A stretch of DNA of 39,355 nucleotides from Deinococcales bacterium (GCA_043778225.1 JAYWGM010000021.1:1-39355); one strand, 5' to 3'. Positions 5,143 to 36,980 are shown, counted from the first letter of the stretch. Notes: generated by a model not told the origin, from the sequence alone. A program made the numbers and translations.

Positions 5143-7977
5143 ATGACCGCCACTGCTGTCACATCTGTTTTTTTGTCGGCACTCGGAAACGCCAAACTCG
5201 AGCCGCAAAAATTCGGTCGCCCCAAGGCAGTCGCATTTTTAACCTATTTATTGCTCGAGGGGCGGCAAAATCGGCAGTTTATGGCAGATTTATTTTGGTC
5301 AGATGCCGCCAACCCACTCAGCAGTTTACGCAATCAGGTCTTGCAACTTCGCCCTTTTGTGGGCGATGCCTTGGTGGTCAGCCGTCAGTTTATTGAATTC
5401 AATGCCTCGTGTGATGTCTTTGAAATGTTGCAATTGCTCGAGTCTGGGCAGTTACAAGCTGCCATAGATGGCTACCAAGGTGATTTTTTGGCAGGTTTTA
5501 GTCCGCCAGCCAATTCTGAACTCGAGCTTTGGCTATTCAGTACCCGAAAATTCTTAAAGCGCCATATTTTGGAAGCGCACCTCAAATTAGCCGAAAGCGA
5601 GACGCAACAAGAACCAATTCTGGCGAAGGCATTTTTGGTTTTGAATCCTGCCGACCACAGCTTACGGCGTTGGCTCGAAGCCCAAGTCAAAGAACTCGAG
5701 CAAAGAAACGAACTAAAACGAACTCGAGTTGCGCCACACAACTTACCGCCCATCGGCAACGAATTTATTGGTCGCAACCACGAAATCAGCGCCATTCTCG
5801 AGCGTTTCCAAAACCAAGCCCAACTGATAACTTTGCTTGGCTTTGGTGGCATCGGCAAAACACGGCTATCGCTCGAGACTGCCCGTTGTGCCTTGCAGCT
5901 TCAGATGTATTTGGATGGAATCTATTTTGTGGCGCTCGAGACGGCTTTTACCGAGACCGATTTACTGACTCGTTTGGTAGTTGCGTTGCAAATTTCTATC
6001 CAAAACACTAGACCCTTACTCGAGCAAATAAAAACCCACATCGGCAACCAGTTCATGCTGCTGCTGCTTGATAACCTCGAGCAACTGACCGAACAAACAC
6101 CAATTCTTGCCGAAATTCTTGAGCATTGCCCAAATCTGCGTTTACTCTGTACCAGCCGTGAAGTGCTGGGATTAAGTGCCGAACACGTTTACCCAATTGC
6201 TGGACTCGAGACCAACGATGTTTTGGGTGGCGCAGTACAACTGTTTATGATTCGGGCGGCTCAAGACTTTTCGGGTTCTGAACAAGCCCAAATCCTGAGT
6301 CTGTGCCAATTGCTCCAAGGTGTGCCGCTTGCGATCGAATTGGCTGTGCCGCAACTCCAAAGTTTTAGCTTGGCGCAGTTACAAACAGTTCTCGAGCAAA
6401 GTCTGGACACATTGCAAAACAGCCATCCAGACTTACCCGAACGCCAACGCAGCCTTCGTGCGGTTTTTTTGCATTCATGGGGATTGCTTGGACAAACCGA
6501 AAGCCAAGCCTTGCGCCGTATGGCAATTTTTAAGAATGGCGCAAACCGCACTGCTTTACGAGCGGTTGGCGAAATCGGTTTAGCCCAAATTGCCCAACTG
6601 ATAGATAAATCCTTGGTGCAACGCAGCGAACAACGCTATACGATTCATCCGCTTATTCTCGAGTACACGCTTGAATTATTGCGGGCTGATGTAGAATTCC
6701 CGCAAATTCTCGAGCAACACGCGATTTATTTTTTAGACCAAACGGCTGGCGAAATGCCAAAAATTCGTGGTGCAGAAGCGGTTAGCGCCATGCAGAAAAT
6801 CGAAGCCGACTACAATAATTTAGAAGCCGCATGGGCGTGGGCGCTCGAGCATCAGGATTTTGTGCGGGTGGCAGCGCTCGAGGAAATGGTGGTGTTTTTT
6901 GACCAGAAAGCCTTGTTTTTGCAGGGAATAGCATTTTTTGAAGAAGCCAACCAAGCCTTCAAAAATGCCCAGAATCAGGCTTTACTGTTAAGCGGAATTG
7001 CAATTGGCATTGCATGGTTACATTTTCGTTTGGGGAATGCTGAGAAAGCAAAAATGTATGGTGAATATGCGGTCGAGTACGCTAAAAGTGAGCCAATTTT
7101 AGGGAAAAATAATCTGTCTAAGGCATTTAATATTTTAGGAAACATTGCATCATTAGATTATGAACACACAACAGCACTAAATTATTTTGAAGAGGCTGTC
7201 CGATATTGTGATGCCGACAATCTTAAAATTAGAAAGGCAACGCTTCTTATAAGAATAGCTGGAGTTTATCGAGAACTTGAAGATTTTGAAGAGTTTTGGA
7301 ATGTGTGGGAATCTGCTCACTTTTTGAATCAAGAACTTAATATTGACAATATAAAAGTCTTATTGATAATAGAAAAGGCAAACTTCTTACTTTATTATGT
7401 TCCGAGAGAAGAAATCACAAAGTTTATTCCTGAAATGACTCAAGTTTATTACTCAACACAAAACTCTTCTATTTATAGCCAGCCTTATTTTGAAATTTTA
7501 ATTTGTCAGTATTTCTTAGTCATAGAAGATTTGAAAAAAGCTGAATTTTGGCTTCAGAAATTCATTCTGCGAAATATATCTCAAACAAATTCTGCACTCT
7601 ACTTATTTTCACAATCATTGCTTGGAAAAATTGAAATGCTTAAAGGGAATCAGAATACCGCTAAGGATGTATTGACTGGAATTCTTTTTGTTAAGTATGA
7701 AAGACAAAGTATTTTGACACTCTTTATAACTTTGGTTAATCTAATAGACCTAATTCCAAAGGTGTACCGAAATGATTTATGGGACTTATTAAAACTGGTC
7801 ATCGCTCATAAAGCAATGACCAAGCGAAGGATTTTTGTTAAGCAGTTTTTGATTGACCAATCGCTGTACTTGGAGATTGATTCTATCCAAGAGACTTCTG
7901 ACCAGCAAATAGAATCTGCTCAACTGCGTTTTACCAACAAATTACGGACCGCCATTATAACCAGTAGGGTCAGCTAG
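5143..7977 (+). CDS. AfsR/SARP-like STAND NTPase: N-terminal wHTH/partial BTAD, NB-ARC ATPase, C-terminal TPR-like helices
   Basis: KAVAFLTYL..R..MADLFW (SARP N-terminus), YQGDFLAGF, HNLP..FIGR, GFGGIGKT Walker A, LLLLDNLEQL Walker B, TSRE, GVPLAIELA and RQRSLRAVF..SW motifs. Confidence 0.85.
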   Translation: MTATAVTSVFLSALGNAKLEPQKFGRPKAVAFLTYLLLEGRQNRQFMADLFWSDAANPLSSLRNQVLQLRPFVGDALVVSRQFIEFNASCDVFEMLQLLESGQLQAAIDGYQGDFLAGFSPPANSELELWLFSTRKFLKRHILEAHLKLAESETQQEPILAKAFLVLNPADHSLRRWLEAQVKELEQRNELKRTRVAPHNLPPIGNEFIGRNHEISAILERFQNQAQLITLLGFGGIGKTRLSLETARCALQLQMYLDGIYFVALETAFTETDLLTRLVVALQISIQNTRPLLEQIKTHIGNQFMLLLLDNLEQLTEQTPILAEILEHCPNLRLLCTSREVLGLSAEHVYPIAGLETNDVLGGAVQLFMIRAAQDFSGSEQAQILSLCQLLQGVPLAIELAVPQLQSFSLAQLQTVLEQSLDTLQNSHPDLPERQRSLRAVFLHSWGLLGQTESQALRRMAIFKNGANRTALRAVGEIGLAQIAQLIDKSLVQRSEQRYTIHPLILEYTLELLRADVEFPQILEQHAIYFLDQTAGEMPKIRGAEAVSAMQKIEADYNNLEAAWAWALEHQDFVRVAALEEMVVFFDQKALFLQGIAFFEEANQAFKNAQNQALLLSGIAIGIAWLHFRLGNAEKAKMYGEYAVEYAKSEPILGKNNLSKAFNILGNIASLDYEHTTALNYFEEAVRYCDADNLKIRKATLLIRIAGVYRELEDFEEFWNVWESAHFLNQELNIDNIKVLLIIEKANFLLYYVPREEITKFIPEMTQVYYSTQNSSIYSQPYFEILICQYFLVIEDLKKAEFWLQKFILRNISQTNSALYLFSQSLLGKIEMLKGNQNTAKDVLTGILFVKYERQSILTLFITLVNLIDLIPKVYRNDLWDLLKLVIAHKAMTKRRIFVKQFLIDQSLYLEIDSIQETSDQQIESAQLRFTNKLRTAIITSRVS

Positions 7978-20270: not shown

Positions 20271-20560
20271 TGTCAGGAACAATACTCGAGTCACGCTTGC
20301 GGATGGCTGCATTGGTCAGTGGTCGTGTCCAAGGTGTGGGGTATCGGCATTTTGTGCAACGCCAAGCCGAAACCTTGCGTTTAGCCGGGTACACCGAGAA
20401 CCTGTCGGATGGTCGGGTCGAAGTCATTGCCGAAGGTGAAAAAACTGACCTCGAGCAATTGCTGCATTATCTTAAACAAGGCTCGACTCATGCGGTGGTC
20501 AAAAGCGTTGAGGTGCAATGGGCAGAAGCTACCGGTTTACGTGGTTTTTTTGTCTATTGA
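20270..20560 (+). CDS. acyP: Acylphosphatase
   Basis: [11 protein letters not shown] and G...N..DGRVEV; TAATG stop/start overlap with the GNAT gene. Confidence 0.93.
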
Positions 20561-22225
20561 CTTCTTTTTGGCGTACCCGACAAAATTTTCCACAGACCAC
20601 GTATTGATGCAGCGCTCGGTGGTTACAGCCCCTTTTTGAGCAGCCTGAATCCCATAAACTAAATCCAAATAGCCTGCGGTGCTGTGTGCATCGGTGTTGA
20701 CCGCAAAGAGGTTTTTTGGATGCTCGAGAACAATTCGCCAATCCAAGTCTAAGCGGTTTGGGTTGGCATTGATTTCGATGATTGTGCCAGCCTCTCGGGC
20801 AGCCTCGAGAACCGCTTGCATATCAAATTCGTAACTTGGGCGGCGCAGCAATAAACGCCCTGTTGGATGCCCCAAAATAGTTGTAAATGGGTTTTGTACC
20901 GCTTTAACCAGTCTTGCGGTTTGGGCAGCAGCCGACAGCGTAAATTGGCTGTGAATGCTCGAGACCACAAAATCAAAACCAGCTAAAATCTCGTCTGGAT
21001 AATCGAGGCTGCCATCGGATAAAATATCGGATTCGATGCCTTTAAGAATTTGGATGCCAAGATTCTCGGCGTTTAAGGCATCAATCTCGAGCCATTGTTC
21101 TTGGACTCGGGCGATGCTCAGTCCATTGGCATAAAATGCGCTTCTCGAGTGGTCGCAGATGCCCAAGTAACAGATGCCTAAGTCCATGGCTGCCAGTGCC
21201 ATTTGGCGCAGTGTGTGTGAACCATCCGAAGCGTTGGTATGAACGTGCAGCATTCCAAGGATTTGATTTTGTTGCACCAAGTTTGTTGGCAGGATTCGAC
21301 CAAGGTGTTCGGCTTCACGCAGTTCTGGCGGGCGCTCTGCAAGTTCGAGCAGCCTAAAAACATCGCTTTCGCTGGGCGTGGCAAGCGGGTCTGAGCCTCG
21401 AAATAACCCTTGGCTCGAGAGTGCAAAACCCTTGGTTTGGGCAGATGCAAAAGCTGTCTCGAGAAATGGTTTTGAACCAGTCATCACAAAACGCGCCGCG
21501 CCAAGGTTTTGGGCGTTGGTGATACACAATTGTACGCTCAAGCCCTCGAACAAAAAAGCTGATAAGTGCGGATACTGAGTGTCTGGAACTGGATTAAAAG
21601 GCGCTAGGCACTCAAAAATCAGGTCGTGGTCGCCGAGTACAATCAGATCCAAATCGCCAATCGTCTCGAGACCACGGCGCAGACTTCCGGCTGGCTCGAG
21701 CCGCACCGAATCGGGAAATAAGCCAGACAGCTGCACAAAGGCACTTTCGGCACTTTGCTGTAAATGCCTTTCCCCAGACAGCACCACAAATTCGGCTGCC
21801 TCGAGAATTGTTTTTTGCGAACCTAAGCCAAAACCCTTTAAGCTCGCCAACTGACCCGACTGAGCCGCTTCTATCAGCATTGTCAAGCTAAGAATATCGG
21901 CATCCCATAAGACTCGAATTTTTTTTGCCCCAAGCCCACGAACCCGAAATAACTCGAGAACACCTTTTGGAATTTCTTTTTTTAATTCCTCGAGTGGCAT
22001 AAATTGACCAGTCGAATGAAATTCGCTTAAATTGCTTGCCAACTGTACGCCAATACCGCGCACCCCTGTAAATCCTTTGGCTACCAAATCCTCCCAATTG
22101 CCAGTTAAATTGTCCAGCGCCCGTTCAGCAGTCTGATAGGCTCTGGCGCGAAATTCGTTTTCGCCAATTAGCTCGAGTAAACTGGCGGTAAATCCCAAGG
22201 CTTTGACAGCATCTTTTTTGGTCAT
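20537..22225 (-). CDS. polX: DNA polymerase X / PHP 3'-5' exonuclease (non-canonical polymerase site)
   Basis: [16 protein letters not shown] HhH, GSLRR..TIGDLD, TGSK; PHP motifs HVHT..SDG, DHS, GIESDI, HPTGR and NTDAH. Confidence 0.92.
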
Positions 22226-22328
22226 ATGAAGACAGTATATGCCCAGAAATGGTTTTAAGCCAAAGCGCTTAACGTTTGGGTTAGGGAGAATACATACTCA
22301 ACTCACTTGAGTCTATTACACTCAGATT

Positions 22329-22739
22329 ATGACCTACGAGCAGTTTGAAAATCGCCTCCAAGAAATGGTGGAAATCATTCCAGAGTCTTACTTTAAGAAC
22401 CTCCAAGGGGTACATTGTTTTATTGAACGTAAAGGCGACCCTGAACGCGGCTTGGTAAGGATGGGCGAATATCTTGACCCCGGGTTTGAAAGTTTTATGG
22501 ACTCGAGAATTCATATCGGACGACACATCAACATTTATTATGGCAGTTTTGTAGCCGTTGCCCAGTACAACCCAAATTTTGATTGGGACGAGCAACTTTG
22601 GGAAACCCTAACCCACGAGCTTCAGCACCATTTAGAAAGTCAAGCCAATGACCAAACCTTAATTGAATGGGATAGGCAGCAGCTTGAGAAATTTAGAACT
22701 GCCAAAAATTCTCGAGCGCACTGGCAAGAATTCGCTTAG
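22329..22739 (+). CDS. Small zincin-like metallopeptidase family protein
   Basis: HELQHH (HExxH) preceded by I.IYYGSF and LWETL; ATG 6 nt after TACACT. Confidence 0.75.
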   Translation: MTYEQFENRLQEMVEIIPESYFKNLQGVHCFIERKGDPERGLVRMGEYLDPGFESFMDSRIHIGRHINIYYGSFVAVAQYNPNFDWDEQLWETLTHELQHHLESQANDQTLIEWDRQQLEKFRTAKNSRAHWQEFA

Positions 22740-22750
22740 AATGGAGTAGG

Positions 22751-23302
22751 ATGAAATGGATTCTGGTCGTGATTGCAGTGCTTGGGTTTGGAATGGGAGC
22801 ATATGTGTTGCTGCGCTCAGAAGTTGTGCAGACTGTGCGACTCGAGCCAGTGATGCCATTGCCAAAAAATCTCGAGCCAACCAAGGCTGCTCCAGCCCAA
22901 AATCCAGTCTCGAGCCTCAAACCCAGACCAACCAAGCCAATCGAACCAAGAAAAACGCCCATCATTCAAAATCTGCCTCGAGTGACCCAAACGCCAGTGC
23001 CGCCAGCCACTCAAACTCCCGAAACTGCAACACCAGAACCAAAAAAAACCACGTCACCAGAAGCTACTGTAGCTATCCCAAGTCTGACCGTGCGTCAAGA
23101 AGCTGGCAGTTGGCGCTTACAAGCAGGAGCGTTTCGTACCCAAGGCAACGCCGAAGCACTGAAAGCCAAAGTAATCGCTACTGGACTGATGGCTCGAGTT
23201 TCCCAAGGCGATGATGGTATTTATCGTGTTTTGGTTGGTAATTACGCCAGCAGTGCGATGGCTCGAGCCGACAGCAACAACGTCTTGAGTGCCTTGCGTT
23301 AA
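22751..23302 (+). CDS. SPOR-domain protein (membrane anchor, Pro/Thr linker)
   Basis: N-terminal hydrophobic helix, P/T/K-rich linker, C-terminal WRLQAGAF...NA..L and YRVLVG.Y SPOR pattern. Confidence 0.85.
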   Translation: MKWILVVIAVLGFGMGAYVLLRSEVVQTVRLEPVMPLPKNLEPTKAAPAQNPVSSLKPRPTKPIEPRKTPIIQNLPRVTQTPVPPATQTPETATPEPKKTTSPEATVAIPSLTVRQEAGSWRLQAGAFRTQGNAEALKAKVIATGLMARVSQGDDGIYRVLVGNYASSAMARADSNNVLSALR

Positions 23303-25887
23303 ATGACTCCAATGGCATGAATATAACCTATTCGGATGGTTCGTTCTTTAGCACCCTCAAGGGTTTTACCTGAAAAGTAGGGCGTGCTGGCAGCATACGA
23401 AACATCAGTTGGCTTGATTTTTTCGTGCTTAATTTTGCCACGGGTTTTCTCTGGATACCCATAATTGCCGTAAACGGTTTTTTCCTCATCGTATTTGATT
23501 TCAAGGCTGCGATTTTGAGCAATAGCGAGTTCGATCATCTCTCGCATTTTTCGAGTGTTCAAACCAATCTGTAGTGGGTTAAGACTTTGACTGCTGGTGG
23601 CTGTAAGGTTGGCACGCAAGGCTGCCCCAGCTTCGATACCAAGGGCTTTTAAGGCTTCTTGGAGTGATTTTTCTGAACCCGCTTTGACCAAATAGGTGGT
23701 GCTGTTGAGTTGGGTGGCTAAATGTGCCTCGAGGCTTGGATGGGTCGCAAGCGAATTGGCGAGTTCATGTTGAAAAAGTGTGGTTGGGACAAGACTGGGT
23801 TTACCAATTTTGCCTTCCCAGAGTGTTAGAAGCGCTTCAAAATGCCTTGGGATATTGCCTTTGACTCGAGCCGAAAAAGCCTCGCGGTAACTGGCGTTAA
23901 AAGCACCAGCTTGGACGGCTTGGCGATTCAAGCCATAAACCCCAGCTTTAAGAGGTATGGCAAGACTGCTCATCATCGCTCGAGCTGCTAAATCTGCACC
24001 ACCCTCGAGCTTAAATGTTCCATCGGCTTGAAAAACGATGGTGCGATTTGGCGTTCCTGAATAACGGTGAACTATGGTGTTTTTTGGAATTACCTCGACC
24101 AGCATAAAGCGTTCGCCAACCGCTCGTGCGCCAGAACTTAATTTAAGCGCAGCATCGCGTTCTTTGGAGTCATGGTACTCGAGTAAAGTTGTTTTTTCGG
24201 TCAGACTCAAGCGTTCGCGTCGCCCAGACCACTCTTGAATACTCGAGCGGACATTGCTAGGTAAGGGGGTACTCGAGTAGATGGTCAGCATTTCCAGAAT
24301 GGTTTGTACACTTAAACCTGTTTCCAAAGCACGGTAAACACTGGCTCGAGAAATCGTGTACATCGCGGTTTGGGCATCAATCCGTTGGCAATCGGCACAA
24401 GACAGGGCAGCTATGGCAAAAGCTGATAATTGATCTAAATAGACAAGCACATCAAAATTGGCTTGAACCAGTAAACTTGCTTGGGGTTTTAAGTTTGGGT
24501 TTGGTGCGCCTTGGGCAAACTGACCAATCCATTTTGCACCAACCCCTCGAGCAATCACGTATTCTGGTTTATCTTTGCTGCCTTTGGTCTCGAATGCCAC
24601 CAGCCCAATTTCGTGCAGCCTGCCAATGATTTCGTGCTTAAAAAAGCCAGGTACAGCCGTGACTGGCTTAGGGTCGCGGTACGAATAACCATCGCTTTCG
24701 CCCGAAAAATAACGCAGTACCCGTTCAAACATCGCTTTTAAGGCGGGTTCAAGCGCCACAGGATCATCGGGCAGTAAAGGAAGGCAAGCCAGCAATCCCT
24801 GCCGAGCCGCCATCACATTTGGAATACCAACCGGACGGCTGAGGTAATTCTGTTCGGTTTTGAATGGCGCAGTTAGGTACAACTCGAGGCAATTGGCATA
24901 GCGAAGCTCGAGGGGCAACATCAAAAAAGCCGACCAGTTTTGAATGTTGGGCTTTAAGCCATCAGTAGTTGGTTTTAGAAAACCAAGGGTTTGTAAGCCA
25001 TTTAAGTAAAATTCGAGGCGGCTGGCTAACCAGACACGGCGTTTGGCAAACTTAGAGAAAACCGCTTTGCTAATTTTGCCATCTTTGGTGGTACTGACCA
25101 ACCCATCCTCGAGAACCAGATTCATCACTTCAGATAACTCAAGTAAAACCTTGGCAGGATGCGTAAAAATAAGATTGCCTTTGACGGTTGTAAGCTCCAG
25201 AGGCTTGGCTTGAAGCGGGGTAACAGGTGGCAATTTTTTTAGGGCAGCTAAAATCCGAGCATCCACAAACAGTAAATCAGCTTCTGAATTTGTAGCAGTA
25301 TTTGAGCCATAATAATAACTTTGGCTAAACCACGAAGCACTTGAAGATTGTGGAATCAGCAAGCAATCGCGCAGCAACAAACCAATCAGACGAACGCCAA
25401 CTTGATTGGATAAGTTCCCACGAAAATAAGGTACGCTGGTGTTCATTTTAGGAGCGGTAAAACCAAGCCGAGCCAGTTGGGCAACCACTTCCCAGCCATT
25501 GACTGGACTGCCACGCAACGCCACATAGTCCAAAGCTGCCCGTTCTAAGTCTGTGCAGTTCTCGAGCATCGCTGTTAGGGCTTTCTCGGATTTTAAGGTT
25601 TGCAAAATGGCTTTTTGCGCCTCAGCTACCCGAGTGACTTTATTGCCCGCAACAAAACGATTGGCAACCAGTTTGATATGGTCAGCATTCATGCGTTCAA
25701 ACATCGAATCGAGCTTAACGGTTTGCTCGACTAAAGCAGGTATGGATACAGAAGCATCACCTAAAAGGCTTTGCCGTAATTGCTCAGGCATGATTGAACC
25801 CATCAGTTCTTGCAACAACAATAATTCTTTTGGGTTATCGAGTAAATCCGAAAAATCAGCCAAATCTAAGCGAGGTAATTTAGGCAT
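23299..25887 (-). CDS. XPB-associated protein: helicase-associated (Helicase_C_3-like) domain(s) plus C-terminal WYL-like domain; p52/Tfb2-like layout
   Basis: LLVQANFDV..YTISRASVYRALETG...IL..L...S..PLPSNV...I.EW parallels the N-terminus of the neighbouring XPB (LIVQADRSI..YRITPLSLWNA..SG..VPSNV). C-terminal IELAIAQNRSLEIKY..IKP..RTIRIGYI resembles WYL. Confidence 0.8.
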   Translation of the reverse strand: MPKLPRLDLADFSDLLDNPKELLLLQELMGSIMPEQLRQSLLGDASVSIPALVEQTVKLDSMFERMNADHIKLVANRFVAGNKVTRVAEAQKAILQTLKSEKALTAMLENCTDLERAALDYVALRGSPVNGWEVVAQLARLGFTAPKMNTSVPYFRGNLSNQVGVRLIGLLLRDCLLIPQSSSASWFSQSYYYGSNTATNSEADLLFVDARILAALKKLPPVTPLQAKPLELTTVKGNLIFTHPAKVLLELSEVMNLVLEDGLVSTTKDGKISKAVFSKFAKRRVWLASRLEFYLNGLQTLGFLKPTTDGLKPNIQNWSAFLMLPLELRYANCLELYLTAPFKTEQNYLSRPVGIPNVMAARQGLLACLPLLPDDPVALEPALKAMFERVLRYFSGESDGYSYRDPKPVTAVPGFFKHEIIGRLHEIGLVAFETKGSKDKPEYVIARGVGAKWIGQFAQGAPNPNLKPQASLLVQANFDVLVYLDQLSAFAIAALSCADCQRIDAQTAMYTISRASVYRALETGLSVQTILEMLTIYSSTPLPSNVRSSIQEWSGRRERLSLTEKTTLLEYHDSKERDAALKLSSGARAVGERFMLVEVIPKNTIVHRYSGTPNRTIVFQADGTFKLEGGADLAARAMMSSLAIPLKAGVYGLNRQAVQAGAFNASYREAFSARVKGNIPRHFEALLTLWEGKIGKPSLVPTTLFQHELANSLATHPSLEAHLATQLNSTTYLVKAGSEKSLQEALKALGIEAGAALRANLTATSSQSLNPLQIGLNTRKMREMIELAIAQNRSLEIKYDEEKTVYGNYGYPEKTRGKIKHEKIKPTDVSYAASTPYFSGKTLEGAKERTIRIGYIHAIGVI

Positions 25888-26194
25888 GGGTTGCCTGCAC
25901 TTTAGGCGTATGCCCAGCTTTTCGCAGCGCCTCGAGCAACGCCTTGGTATTCTGTGGCAGCACCAGCGCTTGGGTACTCGAGACGGCTGCCAGAATCAGT
26001 GGTTTAACCCGCGCATCCAGCATTAAAGACTGCAAATCAGCCGCTTCGGAAACCTCGAGTAAACTTAAATCCTGATGTGCCAAAACCTGCCCAGCTATCG
26101 GAGCGGGTTCAAACAAAGCCCCAGCTATCGGAGCGGGTTCAAACGAAGCCCCAGCTATCGGAGCAATCAAAGTTTCCTTTTTAACTCGAGCCAT
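25880..26194 (-). CDS. Small protein in the XPB operon; putative p8/Tfb5-like fold
   Basis: Starts 4 nt after the XPB stop and overlaps the next start by 8 nt. The C-terminal ~60 aa resemble the ..TTYLV....K.L.EALK..G segment of the 862-aa neighbour. Confidence 0.7.
   Translation of the reverse strand: MARVKKETLIAPIAGASFEPAPIAGALFEPAPIAGQVLAHQDLSLLEVSEAADLQSLMLDARVKPLILAAVSSTQALVLPQNTKALLEALRKAGHTPKVQATHA
26091..26164. repeat. 30-bp tandem repeat, about 2.5 copies, in frame
   Basis: CCAGCTATCGGAGCGGGTTCAAAC(A/G)AAGCC twice plus CCAGCTATCGGAGC; encodes APIAGA(S/L)FEP repeats. Confidence 0.95.
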
Positions 26195-26198
26195 GGTG

Positions 26199-27917
26199 CT
26201 AGTTTAACAGACCTGCGGGTACATCATCAAAATGCCACTCGCTTTCGTCCGAAATTCGGTAGGCATAGCCTTGTTCGGCTAAGAACAATTGCCGATGATG
26301 CGCGAAATCCTCTTCTTTGGATTCCCGAGTCACAATCGAATAAAAATGGGCGGTTTCGCCAGTTTTCTTGGGGCGCAACAACCGACCTAAACGCTGGGCT
26401 TCTTCTTGCCTCGAGCCGAACGCTCCAGAAACCTGTACCAGCACTTGGGCTTCGGGTAGGTCAAGCGCAAAATTACCAACTTTAGACAAGACAATGCGCT
26501 GAATTACCCCAGCCCGAAAACCCTCAAAAATCCGTTCGCGTTCAGTTTGTTTGGTTTCGCCAATAATTAACGGACACTCTAAATCAGCAGCAATTAACTC
26601 GAGTTGCCCGAGGTACTGCCCAATAATTAGGGTCGGGACATTGCCATGCAGTGCCAGAATGCGTTGTACCAAATCGCGTTTAACAGGATTCTCGGCAGCA
26701 ATCCGAAACTTCATGTTCTCTTCAGATACGGCGTAAGTCAGGCGCTCCTCCTCGGGCAGTCGAGTCCGCACTTCGCAGCAGACCGCCGTGGCAATCCAAC
26801 CGCGCCCCTCGAGGTCTTTCCAAGGTAAATCGTAACGCTTAGGACCAATTAAACTAAAGACATCACCTTCGCGTCCATCTTCTCGGATGAGTGTGGCGGT
26901 CAAACCAAGCCGTCTTCGCGCCTGAACCTCGGCAGTCATACGAAAGACTGGTGCGGGCAGCAAATGCACTTCGTCGTAAATGATTAAGCCCCATTCTGAG
27001 GACTTAAAAAGCTCCATATGCGGATATTCGGTTACACCCTCTTCTCGAGTCTTTTTGGATTTACGATGCGTCAGCATCTGATAAGTACACAGTGTAATTG
27101 CGGCAATGGCTTTTTTATCCGAACTGTACTCGGCAACATCATCGGGTTCTAAACGGGTTTTCTCGAGAATTTCGCGCCGCCACTGCGCCACACTGGTACG
27201 GTTGGTGGTTAAAACCAAAGTACGCTGCCCAATCAAACTCATGACCTGAATCCCAACCATGGTTTTACCACTGCCCGGCGGCAAAACGATCACACCAGAA
27301 CCACCCGATTTTGCCCCAGCTTGGTAAAACACTTCGGCAGCCTCGAGTTGATAATCTCGCACTTTGGTTCGAGATGCAAGTTCAATTGGAAACTCTAGCC
27401 CTTCGGCAAAGCCAGCCAAATCCTCAACCGGATAACCCAACTCGAGCAGCGTTTGTTTGACTACCCCCCGATTGAGAAGCGGCACCGCCACCGCAAAATC
27501 GCCTAGACCATCGCCGAGCAGCACCATTAAGCGCTTATTGCGTCGCAACTCGAGCAGCAATGCCTTATCGGATGGCTGCACCTCGAGTGCGTACTGCGTT
27601 CCAGCCTCATGCAGCTTTAAGCGCCCCCAACGCCCCGCCAATTCACGCACATCGGTCAGAACATTGCTCGGTACAGGATACTTGGCAAAATCCTCGAGTG
27701 CCACAATCATCTGTTCGGGTTTCACACCACTGGCAGTCGCATTCCACAACGACAACGGCGTAATGCGGTAAGTATGCAAATGCTCTGGCGATTTCTCGAG
27801 TTCGGCAAAAGGTGCAATCGCTGCCCGCGCAGCCTCGGCAAGCGCATTATGAACCTCGAGAAAAATACTTCGGTCGGCTTGAACTATTAAAGGATTATCA
27901 GGATTAAACGAAGCCAT
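26199..27917 (-). CDS. xpb: XPB/Rad25 (ERCC3-like) SF2 DNA helicase/translocase
   Basis: NPLIVQAD..AEL.KSPEH.HTYRIT N-terminal domain, RDYQ, PPGSGKT, DEVH, GLTATLIRED (XPB RED motif), SKVGNFALDLP and GSRQEEAQRLGRLLRPK. Confidence 0.95.
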   Translation of the reverse strand: MASFNPDNPLIVQADRSIFLEVHNALAEAARAAIAPFAELEKSPEHLHTYRITPLSLWNATASGVKPEQMIVALEDFAKYPVPSNVLTDVRELAGRWGRLKLHEAGTQYALEVQPSDKALLLELRRNKRLMVLLGDGLGDFAVAVPLLNRGVVKQTLLELGYPVEDLAGFAEGLEFPIELASRTKVRDYQLEAAEVFYQAGAKSGGSGVIVLPPGSGKTMVGIQVMSLIGQRTLVLTTNRTSVAQWRREILEKTRLEPDDVAEYSSDKKAIAAITLCTYQMLTHRKSKKTREEGVTEYPHMELFKSSEWGLIIYDEVHLLPAPVFRMTAEVQARRRLGLTATLIREDGREGDVFSLIGPKRYDLPWKDLEGRGWIATAVCCEVRTRLPEEERLTYAVSEENMKFRIAAENPVKRDLVQRILALHGNVPTLIIGQYLGQLELIAADLECPLIIGETKQTERERIFEGFRAGVIQRIVLSKVGNFALDLPEAQVLVQVSGAFGSRQEEAQRLGRLLRPKKTGETAHFYSIVTRESKEEDFAHHRQLFLAEQGYAYRISDESEWHFDDVPAGLLN

Positions 27918-27924
27918 TGTTTAG

Positions 27925-27930
27925 ATTATA
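27925..27930 (-). promoter_or_regulatory. Consensus -10 box (TATAAT) of the probably leaderless xpb operon
   Basis: ATTATA on + is TATAAT on -, 7 nt upstream of the xpb ATG; no SD. Confidence 0.65.
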
Positions 27931-27934
27931 ACGG

Positions 27935-32067: not shown

Positions 32068-32610
32068 TCACTCATGTGATTTTTTGAGTGTGAGCCTGTT
32101 TCTAATGTCTTGTTCGAGATAATACAAATTTTTTTCTGTAATTACCACGAAAAGAGAAATTGGCAATCGTTCATAGCTCGAACAAAGAACAAATTGAAAG
32201 AGACCAGACGCATCTGGAGCCTGAGTATAATCAGCATAAACTTCGAGTTGATTAAAAGAATCTAGCCTGAGTCGCCGAACTTGCTGAATAAAGACTCTTT
32301 GGGTGGTGATTTCAATAACGTTATTTTCTGGCTCTGCATTCACAAAAATACTTATGGGATAAAGCCATTCTTGCAAAAGTAGCCAGCAAAGCCACACGCA
32401 TCCTAAGCCTATCCCAACGTATGATTCAAAACCAAACCAACCAATAGCAGCAGGTAAAAGAGTCAAACTTCCAAATACCAAGAGTCTTGCACTTAAACCT
32501 CGCTTTGATTCCAGCTTAAATCGATTTGAATTTTTCTCACCATGGTAATTGAGTGTTTCGTCTCGCCCTGAAGCAATGTTGCCTAGTGTATTTGCAAAAC
32601 GCTCAATCAT
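32068..32610 (-). CDS. Hypothetical membrane protein (2 TM helices), AT-rich
   Basis: 180-aa ORF with an ATGA overlap on the lysT stop; two hydrophobic segments. Confidence 0.6.
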   Translation of the reverse strand: MIERFANTLGNIASGRDETLNYHGEKNSNRFKLESKRGLSARLLVFGSLTLLPAAIGWFGFESYVGIGLGCVWLCWLLLQEWLYPISIFVNAEPENNVIEITTQRVFIQQVRRLRLDSFNQLEVYADYTQAPDASGLFQFVLCSSYERLPISLFVVITEKNLYYLEQDIRNRLTLKKSHE

Positions 32611-35992: not shown

Positions 35993-36676
35993 TTAGCGTC
36001 TGCCACCGCCACGTCCGCCATGCAGTCCAAAGTTGGCATCGGCTTGGGCGCGAGCCAAAATCGAATCGGCTTGGGCTTGGGTTAAGGTTTTGGCTTTAAC
36101 GGCGGCATCCAACTGGGCTTTTAAGTTGTTAATCACTGCATTCTTAACCGTCTCGAGGGTCACTTTTTGGGTTGTCGCAAGGCTGGTCAGGGTTTGTCCA
36201 GCCCGCAGTTGGGCATCGAGTTGAACGGCTGTTAAATTCAGGGCTTTAGCCGCACTCTCGAGCAACGAAATTTGGCTGAGGTTTGCGCCCATCATGCCAC
36301 CATCCATGCCACGTCTGCCATCGCGTCCTTGTCCATCTCGATCGTTACCACGTCCGCCGCCACCGCCACGCTCCCAAACGCCCAAACGCCCTTGTCCGAC
36401 TTGGGTTTTGAGTTGTTCGGCTTGGGTCTTGGTGATGTCTTGGTTTTTGAGCATTTCGTCTACGGTCGCGTTGCCAGCAGTTTTCAGGGCTGCCTCGAGT
36501 TTGGCTTGGTCTACGCCCAATGTGCCAGCCAATTTTTGGACAAAGGTTTTGGAATAATCCACAGCTTGTTGAACCACGCTGGTTGTGCCAGTTTGCTGTG
36601 CCATAACAGCGTTGTAGGTTAAAGGTGTGACCACGAGGGCGAAGGCGGCGAGGGCGGTTTTCAGGTGCTTATTCAT
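35993..36676 (-). CDS. Secreted helical protein with internal duplication and Gly/Arg-rich linkers
   Basis: Signal peptide MNKHLKTALAAFALVV..AVMA/Q; AAGGAG SD before ATG 36676; two similar LA..LG/LN...ITKTQA/LTQAQA modules. Confidence 0.8.
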   Translation of the reverse strand: MNKHLKTALAAFALVVTPLTYNAVMAQQTGTTSVVQQAVDYSKTFVQKLAGTLGVDQAKLEAALKTAGNATVDEMLKNQDITKTQAEQLKTQVGQGRLGVWERGGGGGRGNDRDGQGRDGRRGMDGGMMGANLSQISLLESAAKALNLTAVQLDAQLRAGQTLTSLATTQKVTLETVKNAVINNLKAQLDAAVKAKTLTQAQADSILARAQADANFGLHGGRGGGRR

Positions 36677-36980
36677 ATTTTTCTCCTTAGTGAACACCTT
36701 GGTGTTCGTGCCAATAAGGTAGCGCGGCTTGGTAACGGTTGGGTTACAGCCTTTGTTACTGAGGGCGGTAAGAGCATCCTCAAAGCTCATAGGCTTTTGT
36801 GCGTGGCTTGGCTGTACGAACCAAGTGTGCATAAAGGGCAAAACAATTTGAACAATCAACAGCTTCGTGTCTGGTTACTCGAGAAGTGTCGGTTTTTTCT
36901 GACAACTTGCACTTTTTTTGATGTACAACTTGCTAAAAAATTGTGTTAGGCTAAGGGTCGTAAGTTAGAGGAGAGTCGAA

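Follow-up and report, generated by a model that had tools for sequence, protein, structure and literature searches.

Gene layout and sequence features of the locus

The window, the whole stretch of 39,355 nucleotides from a Deinococcales bacterium that was analyzed, contains three tightly packed minus-strand genes encoding XPB (P0001), a small protein (P0002) and a large protein (P0003) (Table 1). The gap between the XPB and small genes is 4 nt (26195–26198), and the small and large genes overlap by 8 nt (25880–25887). These open reading frames match exactly the packing described in an earlier note on this DNA. The TATAAT box that the same note had placed ahead of XPB was found at 27930–27925. 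It stops 7 nt short of the XPB ATG and lies in the 17-nt gap that follows the upstream XdhC-like gene and its stop codon. A generic sigma-70 scan did not flag the hexamer before XPB because a -35 partner is absent. The position of this putative promoter element is compatible with a leaderless-type start of XPB.

Table 1 Positions of genes, domains and motifs of the cassette in the window.
Feature	Position	Strand	Basis
XPB gene (P0001), 572 aa	26199..27917	-	NCBIfam NF045503; Pfam ERCC3_RAD25_C, Helicase_C_3, ResIII
Small p8/Tfb5-like gene (P0002), 104 aa	25880..26194	-	AF2, Foldseek, hhalign, predicted binding
Large p52/Tfb2-like gene with C-terminal WYL domain (P0003), 862 aa	23299..25887	-	Pfam, HMMER, AF2, Foldseek, VIA
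TATAAT hexamer, candidate leaderless-type -10 box	27925..27930	-	sequence read
XPB N-terminal domain, Helicase_C_3, residues 10-133	27519..27890	-	Pfam, E 1.9e-32
RED motif, XPB residues 345-347	26877..26885	-	motif read in translation
P0003 N-terminal helical/winged-helix region, residues ~60-459, p52 N-half-like	24511..25710	-	VIA
P0003 unit 1 clutch, XPB-NTD fold, residues 465-560	24208..24495	-	VIA, Pfam
P0003 unit 1 small domain, residues 561-611, counterpart of p52 C-terminal p8-binding domain	24055..24207	-	HMMER, hhalign, predicted interface
P0003 unit 2, residues 612-770, second XPB-NTD-like domain and second p8-like small domain (~699-758)	23578..24054	-	hhalign
P0003 WYL-like domain, residues 775-862	23302..23565	-	VIA fold match

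XPB is defined by a RED motif together with motifs I and II of SF2, and in TFIIH the N-terminal domain of XPB (Helicase_C_3) pairs with the p52 clutch. P0001 scored 792.3 bits against the NCBIfam equivalog NF045503 (cut-off 610, residues 9–555) and carries, besides RED, a Walker A GSGKT at residues 215–219 and DEVH at 315–318, as expected from its earlier description as an XPB with a RED motif. Passages of PMC13024598 refer to the RED motif as well. Judged by its sequence, P0001 is a bona fide XPB bearing the N-terminal domain that binds p52 in eukaryotes.

A profile built from five orthologues of the small gene retrieved 78 proteins of 62–166 aa at E ≤ 0.01. Related loci likewise carry the small gene in the middle, flanked by XPB and the large gene. 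On these sequence comparisons, the small open reading frame is a genuine conserved gene rather than a chance frame.

The large protein resembles p52/Tfb2

A P0003 family profile of 63 homologues, used in a HMMER search of the sequences of solved structures, gave E 8.6e-9 for human p52 and 8.4e-8 for yeast Tfb2. The alignment covered p52 from 247/263 to 408/424, reaching from before the clutch into the C-terminal domain (~390–424). The AF2 model of P0003 had a pLDDT of 88.2, and in a Foldseek comparison, ranks 1–19 were all p52/Tfb2 chains, with E-values of 1.3e-9 to 1.3e-4 over 347–585 columns. VIA aligned P0003 residues 230–606 with p52 135–456 at Z 11–13.7, with a high rmsd over the multi-domain region because the domain orientations differ; full-length p52 rows spanned residues 66/137–606 of the model and 20–456 of p52. 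For the N-terminal half, residues 227–459 matched p52 120–319 (6tru_A) with Z 9.2 and 160 residues aligned. The unit 1 clutch matched human XPB 70–165 with Z 15.2 and an rmsd of 1.9 Å over 92 aligned residues.

The only Pfam model above cut-off in P0003 and its long homologues was Helicase_C_3 (in P0003 at residues 472–582, E 8.7e-13). The scores of P0003 against Pfam Tfb2 (PF03849; 16.7 bits, cut-off 34.5) and TIGR00625 (16.6 bits, cut-off 320.7) stayed below threshold. A sub-threshold Pfam Tfb2 match recurred at the same place in 10 of 29 long homologues, and the cut-off was reached in 0/29.

The region ahead of the WYL domain is built from two tandem units (residues 460–611 and 612–770), which matched each other in hhalign with Prob 97.8 and E 1.2e-12 over 120 columns. 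XPB 1–175 matched each of them with Prob 98.4. The p52 layout claimed previously, a winged-helix N-region followed by an XPB-NTD-like domain and a small domain, thus stood in profile, Foldseek and VIA comparisons, but its single XPB-NTD-like domain gave way to two. Based on the models and alignments, P0003 is a p52/Tfb2 homologue in which the winged-helix region, the XPB-NTD-fold clutch and the small alpha/beta domain are collinear with those of p52.

The small protein and its predicted pairing with P0003

P0002 consists of a disordered N-terminal tail of ~35 residues with three copies of APIAG and a folded core at residues ~40–100, predicted by AF2 with a pLDDT of ~86–91 and a β-α-β-β-α-β topology. 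In hhalign the protein matched both small domains of P0003, at 96.4 (residues 561–611) and 96.8 (695–765), and a separate run gave Prob 92.9. The XPB DRD segment scored 80.8, and seven unrelated control segments scored 0.0–2.2. The proposal that the small gene encodes a free copy of the P0003 small alpha/beta domain is supported by these values.

The likeness to p8 was weaker. Foldseek ranked Tfb5 (3dom_B) first with E 0.18, prob 0.95 and TMt 0.62, and no match was obtained at E ≤ 1e-3. VIA gave Z 6.3 for Tfb5, 5.4 for p8 and 5.0 for the Tfb2 C-terminal domain, values tied with those of an unrelated PKS acyltransferase (6.4) and YebC (6.3); XPB 172–293 in 8ebt_A scored Z 6.1. The fold is a common split β-α-β arrangement. 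In two PDB profile searches, Tfb5 was the only natural family retrieved, with de novo TIM barrels ranking higher, and its direct sequence match was not significant (E 0.24–0.42). P0002 had no Pfam or NCBIfam match at E ≤ 1, so that Pfam gave no Tfb5 match either. The suggested p8 likeness draws on the fold and its topology, on transitive homology and on the predicted binding, and not on significant direct sequence similarity or a curated model.

Binding of P0002 to P0003, which the earlier note had implied, was predicted with ipSAE values of 0.78, 0.77 and 0.77 (best of three controls, 0.00). Of 157 solved complexes, 116 score this well, as do 2 of 215 mismatched pairs, but a pass may mirror resemblance to p52-p8 complexes of known structure. 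Contacts agreed between runs to 84% or more, and the partner had a pLDDT of 72 or higher. The predicted interface on P0003 comprised residues 556–573, 576, 580 and 590–611. This places P0002 on the unit 1 small domain (556–611), not on its closest paralogue at 699–758, and the docking segment is the one aligned with the C-terminal domain through which p52 binds p8. By hhalign, P0002 is homologous to this C-terminal-domain counterpart of its p52-like partner, and it is predicted to dimerize with it.

The C-terminal WYL-like domain

An added WYL domain had been anticipated, and P0003 residues 775–862 matched the WYL folds, a helix plus an Sm-like β-barrel, of PafBC (Z 11.1), BrxR (10.7), CapW (10.4) and DriD (10.3) in VIA, with an rmsd of 2.1–2.7 Å over 72–76 residues of solved WYL domains; Hfq rows scored lower (Z 7.6–8.4). 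P0003 had no match to Pfam WYL (PF13280) at E ≤ 1. Sub-threshold Pfam WYL matches were present at the C-terminus of 5 of 29 long homologues, and a distant Dehalococcoidales homologue (L025) passed the Pfam WYL model with E 8.9e-8. Several of the four matched proteins bind single-stranded DNA, according to PDB titles and the title of PMC11804915.

Distribution and linkage of the three genes

The gene-neighborhood survey suggested by the earlier note was carried out on 301 Deinococcota genomes. The large gene was found in 47, and strong matches to the small gene were confined to 45 of these. XPB was present in 46 of the 47, and in the 301 genomes a score above the XPB cut-off never occurred where the large gene was absent. 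The arrangement is restricted neither to this genome nor to Deinococcota. The four other genomes of the same genus lacked the cassette, which forms a clean 4.6-kb indel between conserved neighbors. The patchy distribution (47/301) is compatible with an accessory function, be it repair or another role.

The pairing of small and large genes extends beyond Deinococcota, with 10 such loci, including Chloroflexota; in 5/5 genomes tested, XPB lay elsewhere in the genome. With the P0003 profile, 4756 cluster representatives passed E ≤ 1e-3, of which 660 also passed E ≤ 1e-30, and most of these relatives were 750–790 aa long, stopping short of the WYL domain. No publication describing this cassette was found in the literature. 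Separately, Atlas clusters in Actinomycetota and Bacillota bear the automatic name 'XPB/Ssl2 N-terminal domain-containing', a lead only.

Interpretation of the cassette

With a probability of about 65%, we consider the cassette to encode the bacterial equivalent of a TFIIH sub-module, XPB-p52-p8. Of the trio put forward earlier, the p52-like P0003, the free small domain and the predicted P0002-P0003 pairing were retained; the single XPB-NTD-like unit gave way to two, with P0002 predicted to dock on the first. The presence of XPB with two look-alikes of its TFIIH regulators in a relative of Deinococcus suggests that the trio is not confined to eukaryotes.

By analogy with TFIIH, where p52/p8 activate the XPB ATPase (in passages of PMC7708078) and the p52 clutch (306–399) together with the p8-binding C-terminal domain cradles RecA2 (in passages of PMC6422496), one clutch-like unit of P0003 would bind the XPB N-terminal domain. 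P0002 is predicted to pair by β-strand addition with the unit 1 small domain of P0003, as p8 does with the p52 C-terminal domain, and the pair would hold XPB RecA2 and tune its ATPase/translocase activity. If the WYL domain binds single-stranded DNA, as PafBC, DriD and CapW lead one to expect, it would recruit or activate XPB where DNA is damaged or unwound. The cassette would likely serve in DNA repair or another DNA-opening task.

Much of the same evidence also bears on a parallel origin, in which P0003 is a generic XPB-NTD-containing scaffold, P0002 a bacterial duplicate of the DRD-like half of XPB, and the trio an analogue of XPB-p52-p8 rather than a homologue. P0002 could indeed stem from duplication within bacteria, independent of eukaryotic p8: it matches the XPB DRD segment and XPB 172–293 in 8ebt_A as well as Tfb5, to which its direct match is not significant. 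Helicase_C_3 alone passes the Pfam cut-off in P0003, and XPB 1–175 matches both units. We nevertheless regard a parallel origin as unlikely, as the p52 alignments reach well past the clutch, both in the structural comparisons (347–585 columns, model residues 66/137–606, N-terminal half Z 9.2) and in HMMER, where they span from before the clutch to the p52 C-terminal domain; the sub-threshold Tfb2 match recurs at one place in 10/29 long homologues, and the predicted docking site of P0002 is collinear with the domain that binds p8.

The WYL domain admits two further readings. An anti-phage or other conflict system, with XPB as motor and the WYL domain sensing phage-derived nucleic acid as in WYL-regulated defence, would agree with the closeness of BrxR and CapW, regulators of defence systems, with the patchy phyletic pattern and clean indel, and with weak PADLOC matches of XPB to PbeA helicases (E 2e-18). 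This appears quite improbable given that PADLOC gave no match for P0002 or P0003, that the cassette is without a nuclease or other effector, and that its neighbors in the 39-kb window are housekeeping genes, one Fic gene being the sole defence/mobile exception; moreover, PafBC and DriD, equally close WYL folds, serve DNA-damage responses. Since most characterized WYL proteins are transcription factors (PDB titles), P0003 might also be a WYL-type regulator in an operon pairing regulator and helicase, P0002 having no role in a complex. We give this hardly any credence: no HTH/wHTH module of the PafBC/BrxR type precedes the P0003 WYL domain, the region ahead of it aligns instead with p52 and the XPB NTD, and P0002 is strictly linked to P0003 and predicted to bind it.

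If the cassette is the TFIIH counterpart, a broader and decidedly tentative extension would make the trio an ancient, widespread bacterial machine, seen so far in Deinococcota and Chloroflexota and, as unverified leads, in Actinomycetota, Planctomycetota, Bacillota and others, whose non-motor parts are all made from one repeated unit. In that reading, the unit joins an XPB-NTD-like domain to a small DRD/p8-like domain behind it and is present once in XPB and twice in P0003, with a free half in P0002. Archaeal XPB pairs with the Bax1 nuclease, and bacteria were reportedly described in 2012 as lacking p52 homologues; the regulated XPB module of TFIIH may therefore have come to eukaryotes from bacteria and not from their archaeal ancestor. 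A bacterial version with a WYL sensor would, if real, offer a minimal, genetically tractable model of p52/p8 control of XPB.

Comparison with known systems

Bacterial 'XPB/Ssl2 N-terminal domain-containing' (Helicase_C_3) proteins encoded beside XPB, for example in Chloroflexota and Actinomycetota, belong to the same family as P0003. No paper was found in the literature that assigns such proteins to p52 or gives them a p8-like partner. In Anaerolineae loci, the place between XPB and the large gene is taken by a SWIM + Helicase_C_3 protein, where the present locus has the free small protein instead.

Archaeal XPB-Bax1 likewise has a prokaryotic XPB encoded next to its partner, but the partner here is p52-like and not a nuclease. 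The three-gene cassette contains no DUF790 gene, DUF790 presumably being the Bax1 family; the DUF790 gene of this genome lies on another contig (C7). DUF790 was found in 32/47 cassette genomes versus 88/254 others, and is thus not tightly linked to the cassette.

With PafBC, DriD, CapW and BrxR, P0003 shares the fold of residues 775–862. Their WYL domains, however, are part of HTH transcription factors, whereas that of P0003 is fused to a p52-like helicase partner.

The likeness to TFIIH XPB-p52(Tfb2)-p8(Tfb5) extends over all three proteins. XPB here has an N-terminal domain of the kind that pairs with p52; P0003, as p52, has winged-helix repeats, an XPB-NTD-fold clutch and then a small alpha/beta domain; and a separate protein with a ~70-residue core, P0002, has the fold of that small domain and is predicted to bind it. 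The bacterial system differs in that P0003 and P0002 fall short of the curated models for Tfb2 and Tfb5, that P0002 has its disordered tail, that P0003 is ~400 residues longer than p52, with a second clutch and small-domain unit and a WYL domain, and that the three genes form one bacterial operon.

Layout and surroundings of the XPB cassette

The ORF listing bore out the three tightly packed minus-strand genes that the earlier note had described: XPB (P0001) is separated by a 4-nt gap from a small gene (P0002), which in turn overlaps a large gene (P0003) by 8 nt. The first gene was likewise confirmed as XPB with its RED motif, with an NCBIfam XPB equivalog score of 792.3 bits (cut-off 610), Pfam matches to ERCC3_RAD25_C, ResIII and an N-terminal Helicase_C_3 domain (residues 10-133, E 1.9e-32), and the motifs GSGKT at 215-219, DEVH at 315-318 and RED at 345-347. 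As for the TATAAT box placed in front of the cassette, the hexamer is present, but a generic promoter scan left it unflagged. Its placement would fit a leaderless-type transcript, and we regard it as a candidate promoter element.

Coordinates of the cassette genes and of other features in the window
Feature	Position	Strand	Remark
XPB (P0001)	26199-27917	-	572-aa ORF
Small gene (P0002)	25880-26194	-	104-aa ORF
Large gene (P0003)	23299-25887	-	862-aa ORF
TATAAT hexamer	27930-27925	-	7 nt before the XPB ATG, inside the 17-nt spacer that follows the XdhC-like stop codon
APIAG repeat	26100-26170		N-terminal tail of P0002, residues 11-35
PolX-type polymerase gene with PHP domain	20537-22225	-	downstream of the cassette, same strand
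ORF	5143-7977	+	944 aa, no Pfam match at the thresholds used; comes after the type IV pilus ATPase (T2SSE/MshEN) gene
ORF	22281-22595	-	104 aa, no Pfam match at the thresholds used
ORF	32068-32610	-	180 aa, no Pfam match at the thresholds used
ORF	35993-36859	-	288 aa, no Pfam match at the thresholds used

The base composition of the window is unremarkable, and its remaining genes have housekeeping functions (XdhC- and LysX-like proteins, aconitase-type subunits, PdxS/PdxT, shikimate-pathway enzymes, a type IV pilus ATPase and a PolX-PHP polymerase), plus one Fic gene. The polymerase gene was rejected as a cassette member because a plus-strand SPOR gene intervenes and because it is absent from related loci. 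PADLOC returned no matches for P0002 and P0003, and generic helicase matches only for XPB.

Architecture of the large protein

Helicase_C_3 was the only Pfam domain above cut-off in P0003 (472-582, E 8.7e-13); Pfam Tfb2 remained sub-threshold (16.7 bits, cut-off 34.5), TIGR00625 (tfb2) fell far under its cut-off, and Pfam WYL was undetected. A word-indexed search with P0003 gave 10 proteins only, and an exhaustive profile search was used instead, yielding 4756 cluster representatives at E ≤ 1e-3, of which 660 passed E ≤ 1e-30. Lengths of 750-790 aa predominate, in proteins that stop near profile position 715, while a subset of approximately 800-930 aa reaches the profile end.

When compared with solved proteins, a 63-sequence P0003-family profile matched human p52 (E 8.6e-9) and yeast Tfb2 (E 8.4e-8), with the p52 alignment spanning residues 263-424, so that it begins ahead of the clutch and reaches the first part of the C-terminal domain. 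The same profile also matched XPB N-terminal regions (E 2.8e-5 to 2.8e-4). The AF2 model of P0003 was confident (mean pLDDT 88.2, pTM 0.68), and Foldseek ranks 1-19 were p52/Tfb2 chains throughout (E 1.3e-9 to 1.3e-4, 347-585 alignment columns), followed by PafBC, BrxR, CapW and XPB chains. Whole-chain TM-scores were low (0.15-0.19 by query) and the rmsd was high, which is usual when a chain has several domains joined flexibly. In VIA comparisons, residues 465-560 matched human XPB 70-165 with Z 15.2 (rmsd 1.9 Å, 92 residues), residues ~230-606 matched p52 135-456 with Z 11-13.7, and residues 227-459 matched the N-terminal half of p52 with Z 9.2. For residues 775-862, the WYL domains of PafBC, BrxR, CapW and DriD gave Z scores of 11.1, 10.7, 10.4 and 10.3, respectively, and Hfq rows ranked below them (Z 7.6-8.4). 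Among P0003 homologues, Pfam WYL was sub-threshold in 5 of the 29 long ones and significant in a distant one (L025, E 8.9e-8). By sequence profile and by model, P0003 is p52/Tfb2-like in architecture, with a C-terminal WYL fold. The p52 layout and the XPB-NTD-like domain that the earlier note had assigned to this protein were thereby upheld, and its WYL claim held at the level of the fold.

Local hhalign comparisons between column blocks of the 63-sequence alignment matched P0003 460-611 (unit 1) to 612-770 (unit 2) with Prob 97.8 and E 1.2e-12 over 120 columns, and XPB 1-175 matched each of the two units with Prob 98.4. From these matches, the unit of an XPB-NTD-like domain plus a small alpha/beta domain is present once in XPB and twice in P0003, whereas p52 ends with a single one.

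The small protein and its predicted docking

P0002 had no matches in Pfam or NCBIfam. In four Deinococcales/Trueperaceae loci an orthologue occupies the same place, flanked by XPB and the large gene, and a profile of five orthologues retrieved 78 proteins at E ≤ 0.01, the named ones all being "hypothetical protein" of Deinococcota. The motif APIAG occurs three times in the N-terminal tail of P0002 through a 30-nt tandem duplication not shared by the orthologues; a terminator scan read this repeat as two identical hairpin-like sites.

In the AF2 model of P0002 (44 sequences), a disordered tail (1-35) precedes a confident core (blocks 41-90, pLDDT 86-91) with b-a-b-b-a-b topology. Foldseek returned nothing at E ≤ 1e-3 for this model; rank 1 was yeast Tfb5 (3dom_B; E 0.18, prob 0.95, TM by target 0.62), and the top 50 held many p8/Tfb5 chains and some p52, intermixed with unrelated small alpha/beta domains. 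A wide VIA search gave Z 6.3 for Tfb5 (56 residues, 2.4 Å) and Z 6.1 for XPB 172-293, with weaker rows for p8 (Z 5.4) and the Tfb2 C-terminal domain (Z 5.0). The Tfb5/p8 rows were tied with unrelated ferredoxin-like rows, a PKS acyltransferase (Z 6.4) and YebC (Z 6.3), and the fold of P0002 alone is therefore not discriminating. For the suggested structural match to p8/Tfb5, the Foldseek ranking speaks in favor, its E value is weak and the VIA scores are tied. In two PDB profile searches with the P0002 family, Tfb5 was the sole natural family, at a non-significant E of 0.24-0.42; the de novo TIM barrels heading these searches were dismissed as spurious repeat matches.

Sequence profiles tell more about the kinship of P0002 than fold searches do. 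The P0002 family matched P0003-family 699-758 with Prob 92.9, P0003 blocks 695-765 and 561-611 with Prob 96.8 and 96.4, and the XPB DRD block 95-175 with Prob 80.8, compared with Prob 0.0-2.2 for seven unrelated blocks (N-region, clutch, middle, WYL, XPB core, XPB wH). These values support the earlier reading of P0002 as a free copy of the small domain of P0003.

Complex prediction with P0003 460-862 (63-row alignment) and P0002 (44-row alignment) also favored the proposed pairing of the two proteins, with ipSAE values of 0.78, 0.77 and 0.77 against 0.00 for the best of three controls. Among solved complexes, 116 of 157 attained this ipSAE mark, compared with 2 of 215 mismatched pairs; a pass may reflect resemblance to solved complexes, which is the similarity at issue and not proof of binding. 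The runs had at least 84% of contacts in common, with a partner pLDDT of at least 72. The predicted interface comprises P0003 residues 556-573, 576, 580, 590-611 and 627-649 and P0002 residues 26-50, 68-80, 83-90 and 95-102, with the tightest contacts between P0003 strands 562-570 and 605-609 and P0002 37-46. P30, G35 and H40, conserved residues of the "disordered" tail, sit within this interface. Docking on the closest paralogue, P0003 699-758, had been the first expectation and was abandoned, as the model put P0002 on 556-611 plus 627-649. The predicted docking segment is collinear with the p8-binding C-terminal domain of p52.

Linkage within Deinococcota

Among 301 Deinococcota genomes (counts include G251, flagged unpublished), the P0002 profile matched 49, of which 45 strongly (E ≤ 1.3e-24) and 4 weakly (~1e-4), and the P0003 profile matched 47 at E ≤ 1e-10. 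XPB scored above cut-off in 44, and two further copies were cut by contig ends. All 45 genomes with a strong small gene fall within the 47 with a large gene; in the other two (G278, G293) the large gene is cut at a contig end. XPB was present in 46 of the 47 large-gene genomes, and none of the 301 had XPB above cut-off without the large gene. Read from coordinates, 44 of 45 genomes have the small gene immediately upstream of the large one, with both on one strand and one contig; in the exception (G051) the two genes are split over contigs.

No cassette was found in family f3 (62 genomes) or in the four further genomes from the genus of the window. One of these four, G188, has the order XdhC-like gene, ~40 nt, SPOR gene and next ORF (L057:1380-1540). 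In the window, the 4.6-kb cassette lies exactly between the XdhC-like and SPOR genes (boundaries 23299-23302 and 27918-27934). Since it fills the exact gap seen in G188, the cassette is a self-contained unit, gained or lost as a whole. The stops of P0003 and SPOR overlap by 4 nt (convergent TTAA), and no repeats flanking the cassette were seen by eye.

Related loci beyond Deinococcota

The small-family HMM was run over 34 related loci. In 14 of them (4 Deinococcota and 10 others, mostly Chloroflexota), a free-standing small frame comes immediately upstream of the large gene; in 13, the small segment is the C-terminal end of a larger upstream SWIM + Helicase_C_3 protein of 293-342 or 663-829 aa, and in 7, several of them truncated, no such segment was detected. 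XPB lies inside 12 of the 34 loci. Paired small and large genes occur outside Deinococcota too, but none of the 10 loci there that have a free small gene contains XPB; each of the five non-Deinococcota genomes tested, of which four carry a free small gene and one the fused form, has a full XPB above cut-off at another place. A profile that took in the Chloroflexota small proteins retrieved 60 proteins of 66-134 aa, for which there are independent gene calls named "hypothetical protein" of Chloroflexota. As leads only, atlas look-ups gave related clusters in Actinomycetota, Bacillota, Fibrobacterota, Planctomycetota and Myxococcota, with WYL on 21-47% of members in some clusters.

In Anaerolineae and relatives (L005-L008, L011, L015, L016, L022, L027), XPB and the p52-like gene flank the gene of an extra protein, which carries a SWIM zinc finger at its N-terminus (scoring at the Pfam cut-off or slightly under it) and a Helicase_C_3 unit at its C-terminus; L007 has two additional genes of this type (609 and 776 aa). 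By its domain content, the SWIM + Helicase_C_3 protein is a third carrier type of the XPB-NTD-like unit. In L010, L014, L024 (Dictyobacter, Chloroflexia MAG) and L029, the gene in front of the p52-like one encodes a ~755-829-aa protein whose sole Pfam domain is a C-terminal Helicase_C_3 unit, with SWIM also in L029. XPB is not nearby in these four loci and lies elsewhere in the genome of L010.

A DUF790 gene outside the window

The same genome encodes, on another contig (C7:992-2233, L058), a 413-aa DUF790/PF05626 protein (418.9 bits), a family that we take to be the Bax1 nuclease family. Matches among control genomes were limited to three archaeal ones. DUF790 occurs in 120 of the 301 Deinococcota genomes, and it was discarded as a hidden cassette partner for lack of strict co-occurrence (32/47 cassette genomes vs 88/254 others). 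In several genomes (G147, G184, G217, G113, G242, G272, G251) the DUF790 gene adjoins a ~470-545-aa SF2 helicase that matches the XPB model weakly (E ~1e-31). These bacteria thus seem to have a separate XPB-like/Bax1-like pair of archaeal type.

Proposed mechanism and relation to TFIIH

One report places the p52 clutch at 306-399 and describes the p52 C-terminal domain as binding p8, "cradling XPB RecA2" (PMC6422496), and another has the XPB ATPase activated by p52/p8 or by DNA (PMC7708078). By analogy with TFIIH, a clutch-like unit of P0003 would pair pseudo-symmetrically with the XPB NTD, and the pair resembling the p52 C-terminal domain and p8 would touch RecA2 and tune ATPase activity and translocation. 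Several WYL proteins reportedly bind ssDNA, going by the PDB titles of WYL structures and the title of one paper (PMC11804915); P0003 775-862 may likewise bind ssDNA and thereby target or license the XPB motor. Candidate roles for the cassette are repair, restart and conflict.

Regulation of XPB by p52/p8 has so far been regarded as eukaryotic. A search of the open-access and bioRxiv literature found no account of p52- or p8-like proteins in bacteria. P0003 relatives already carry the database name "XPB/Ssl2 N-terminal domain-containing protein", so the family is annotated and uncharacterised. What XPB does in bacteria is described as elusive in a 2026 review, which names Bax1 as sole prokaryotic partner (PMC13024598). 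A three-gene operon with p52-like and p8-like partners would give bacterial XPB a testable partner set, offer a small soluble system in which to study the gating of an SF2 translocase by a clutch, a p8 pair and a nucleic-acid sensor, and raise the question of the origin of the TFIIH core. The cassette is best likened to the XPB-p52-p8 module of TFIIH, from which it differs by the duplicated unit and the fused WYL sensor.
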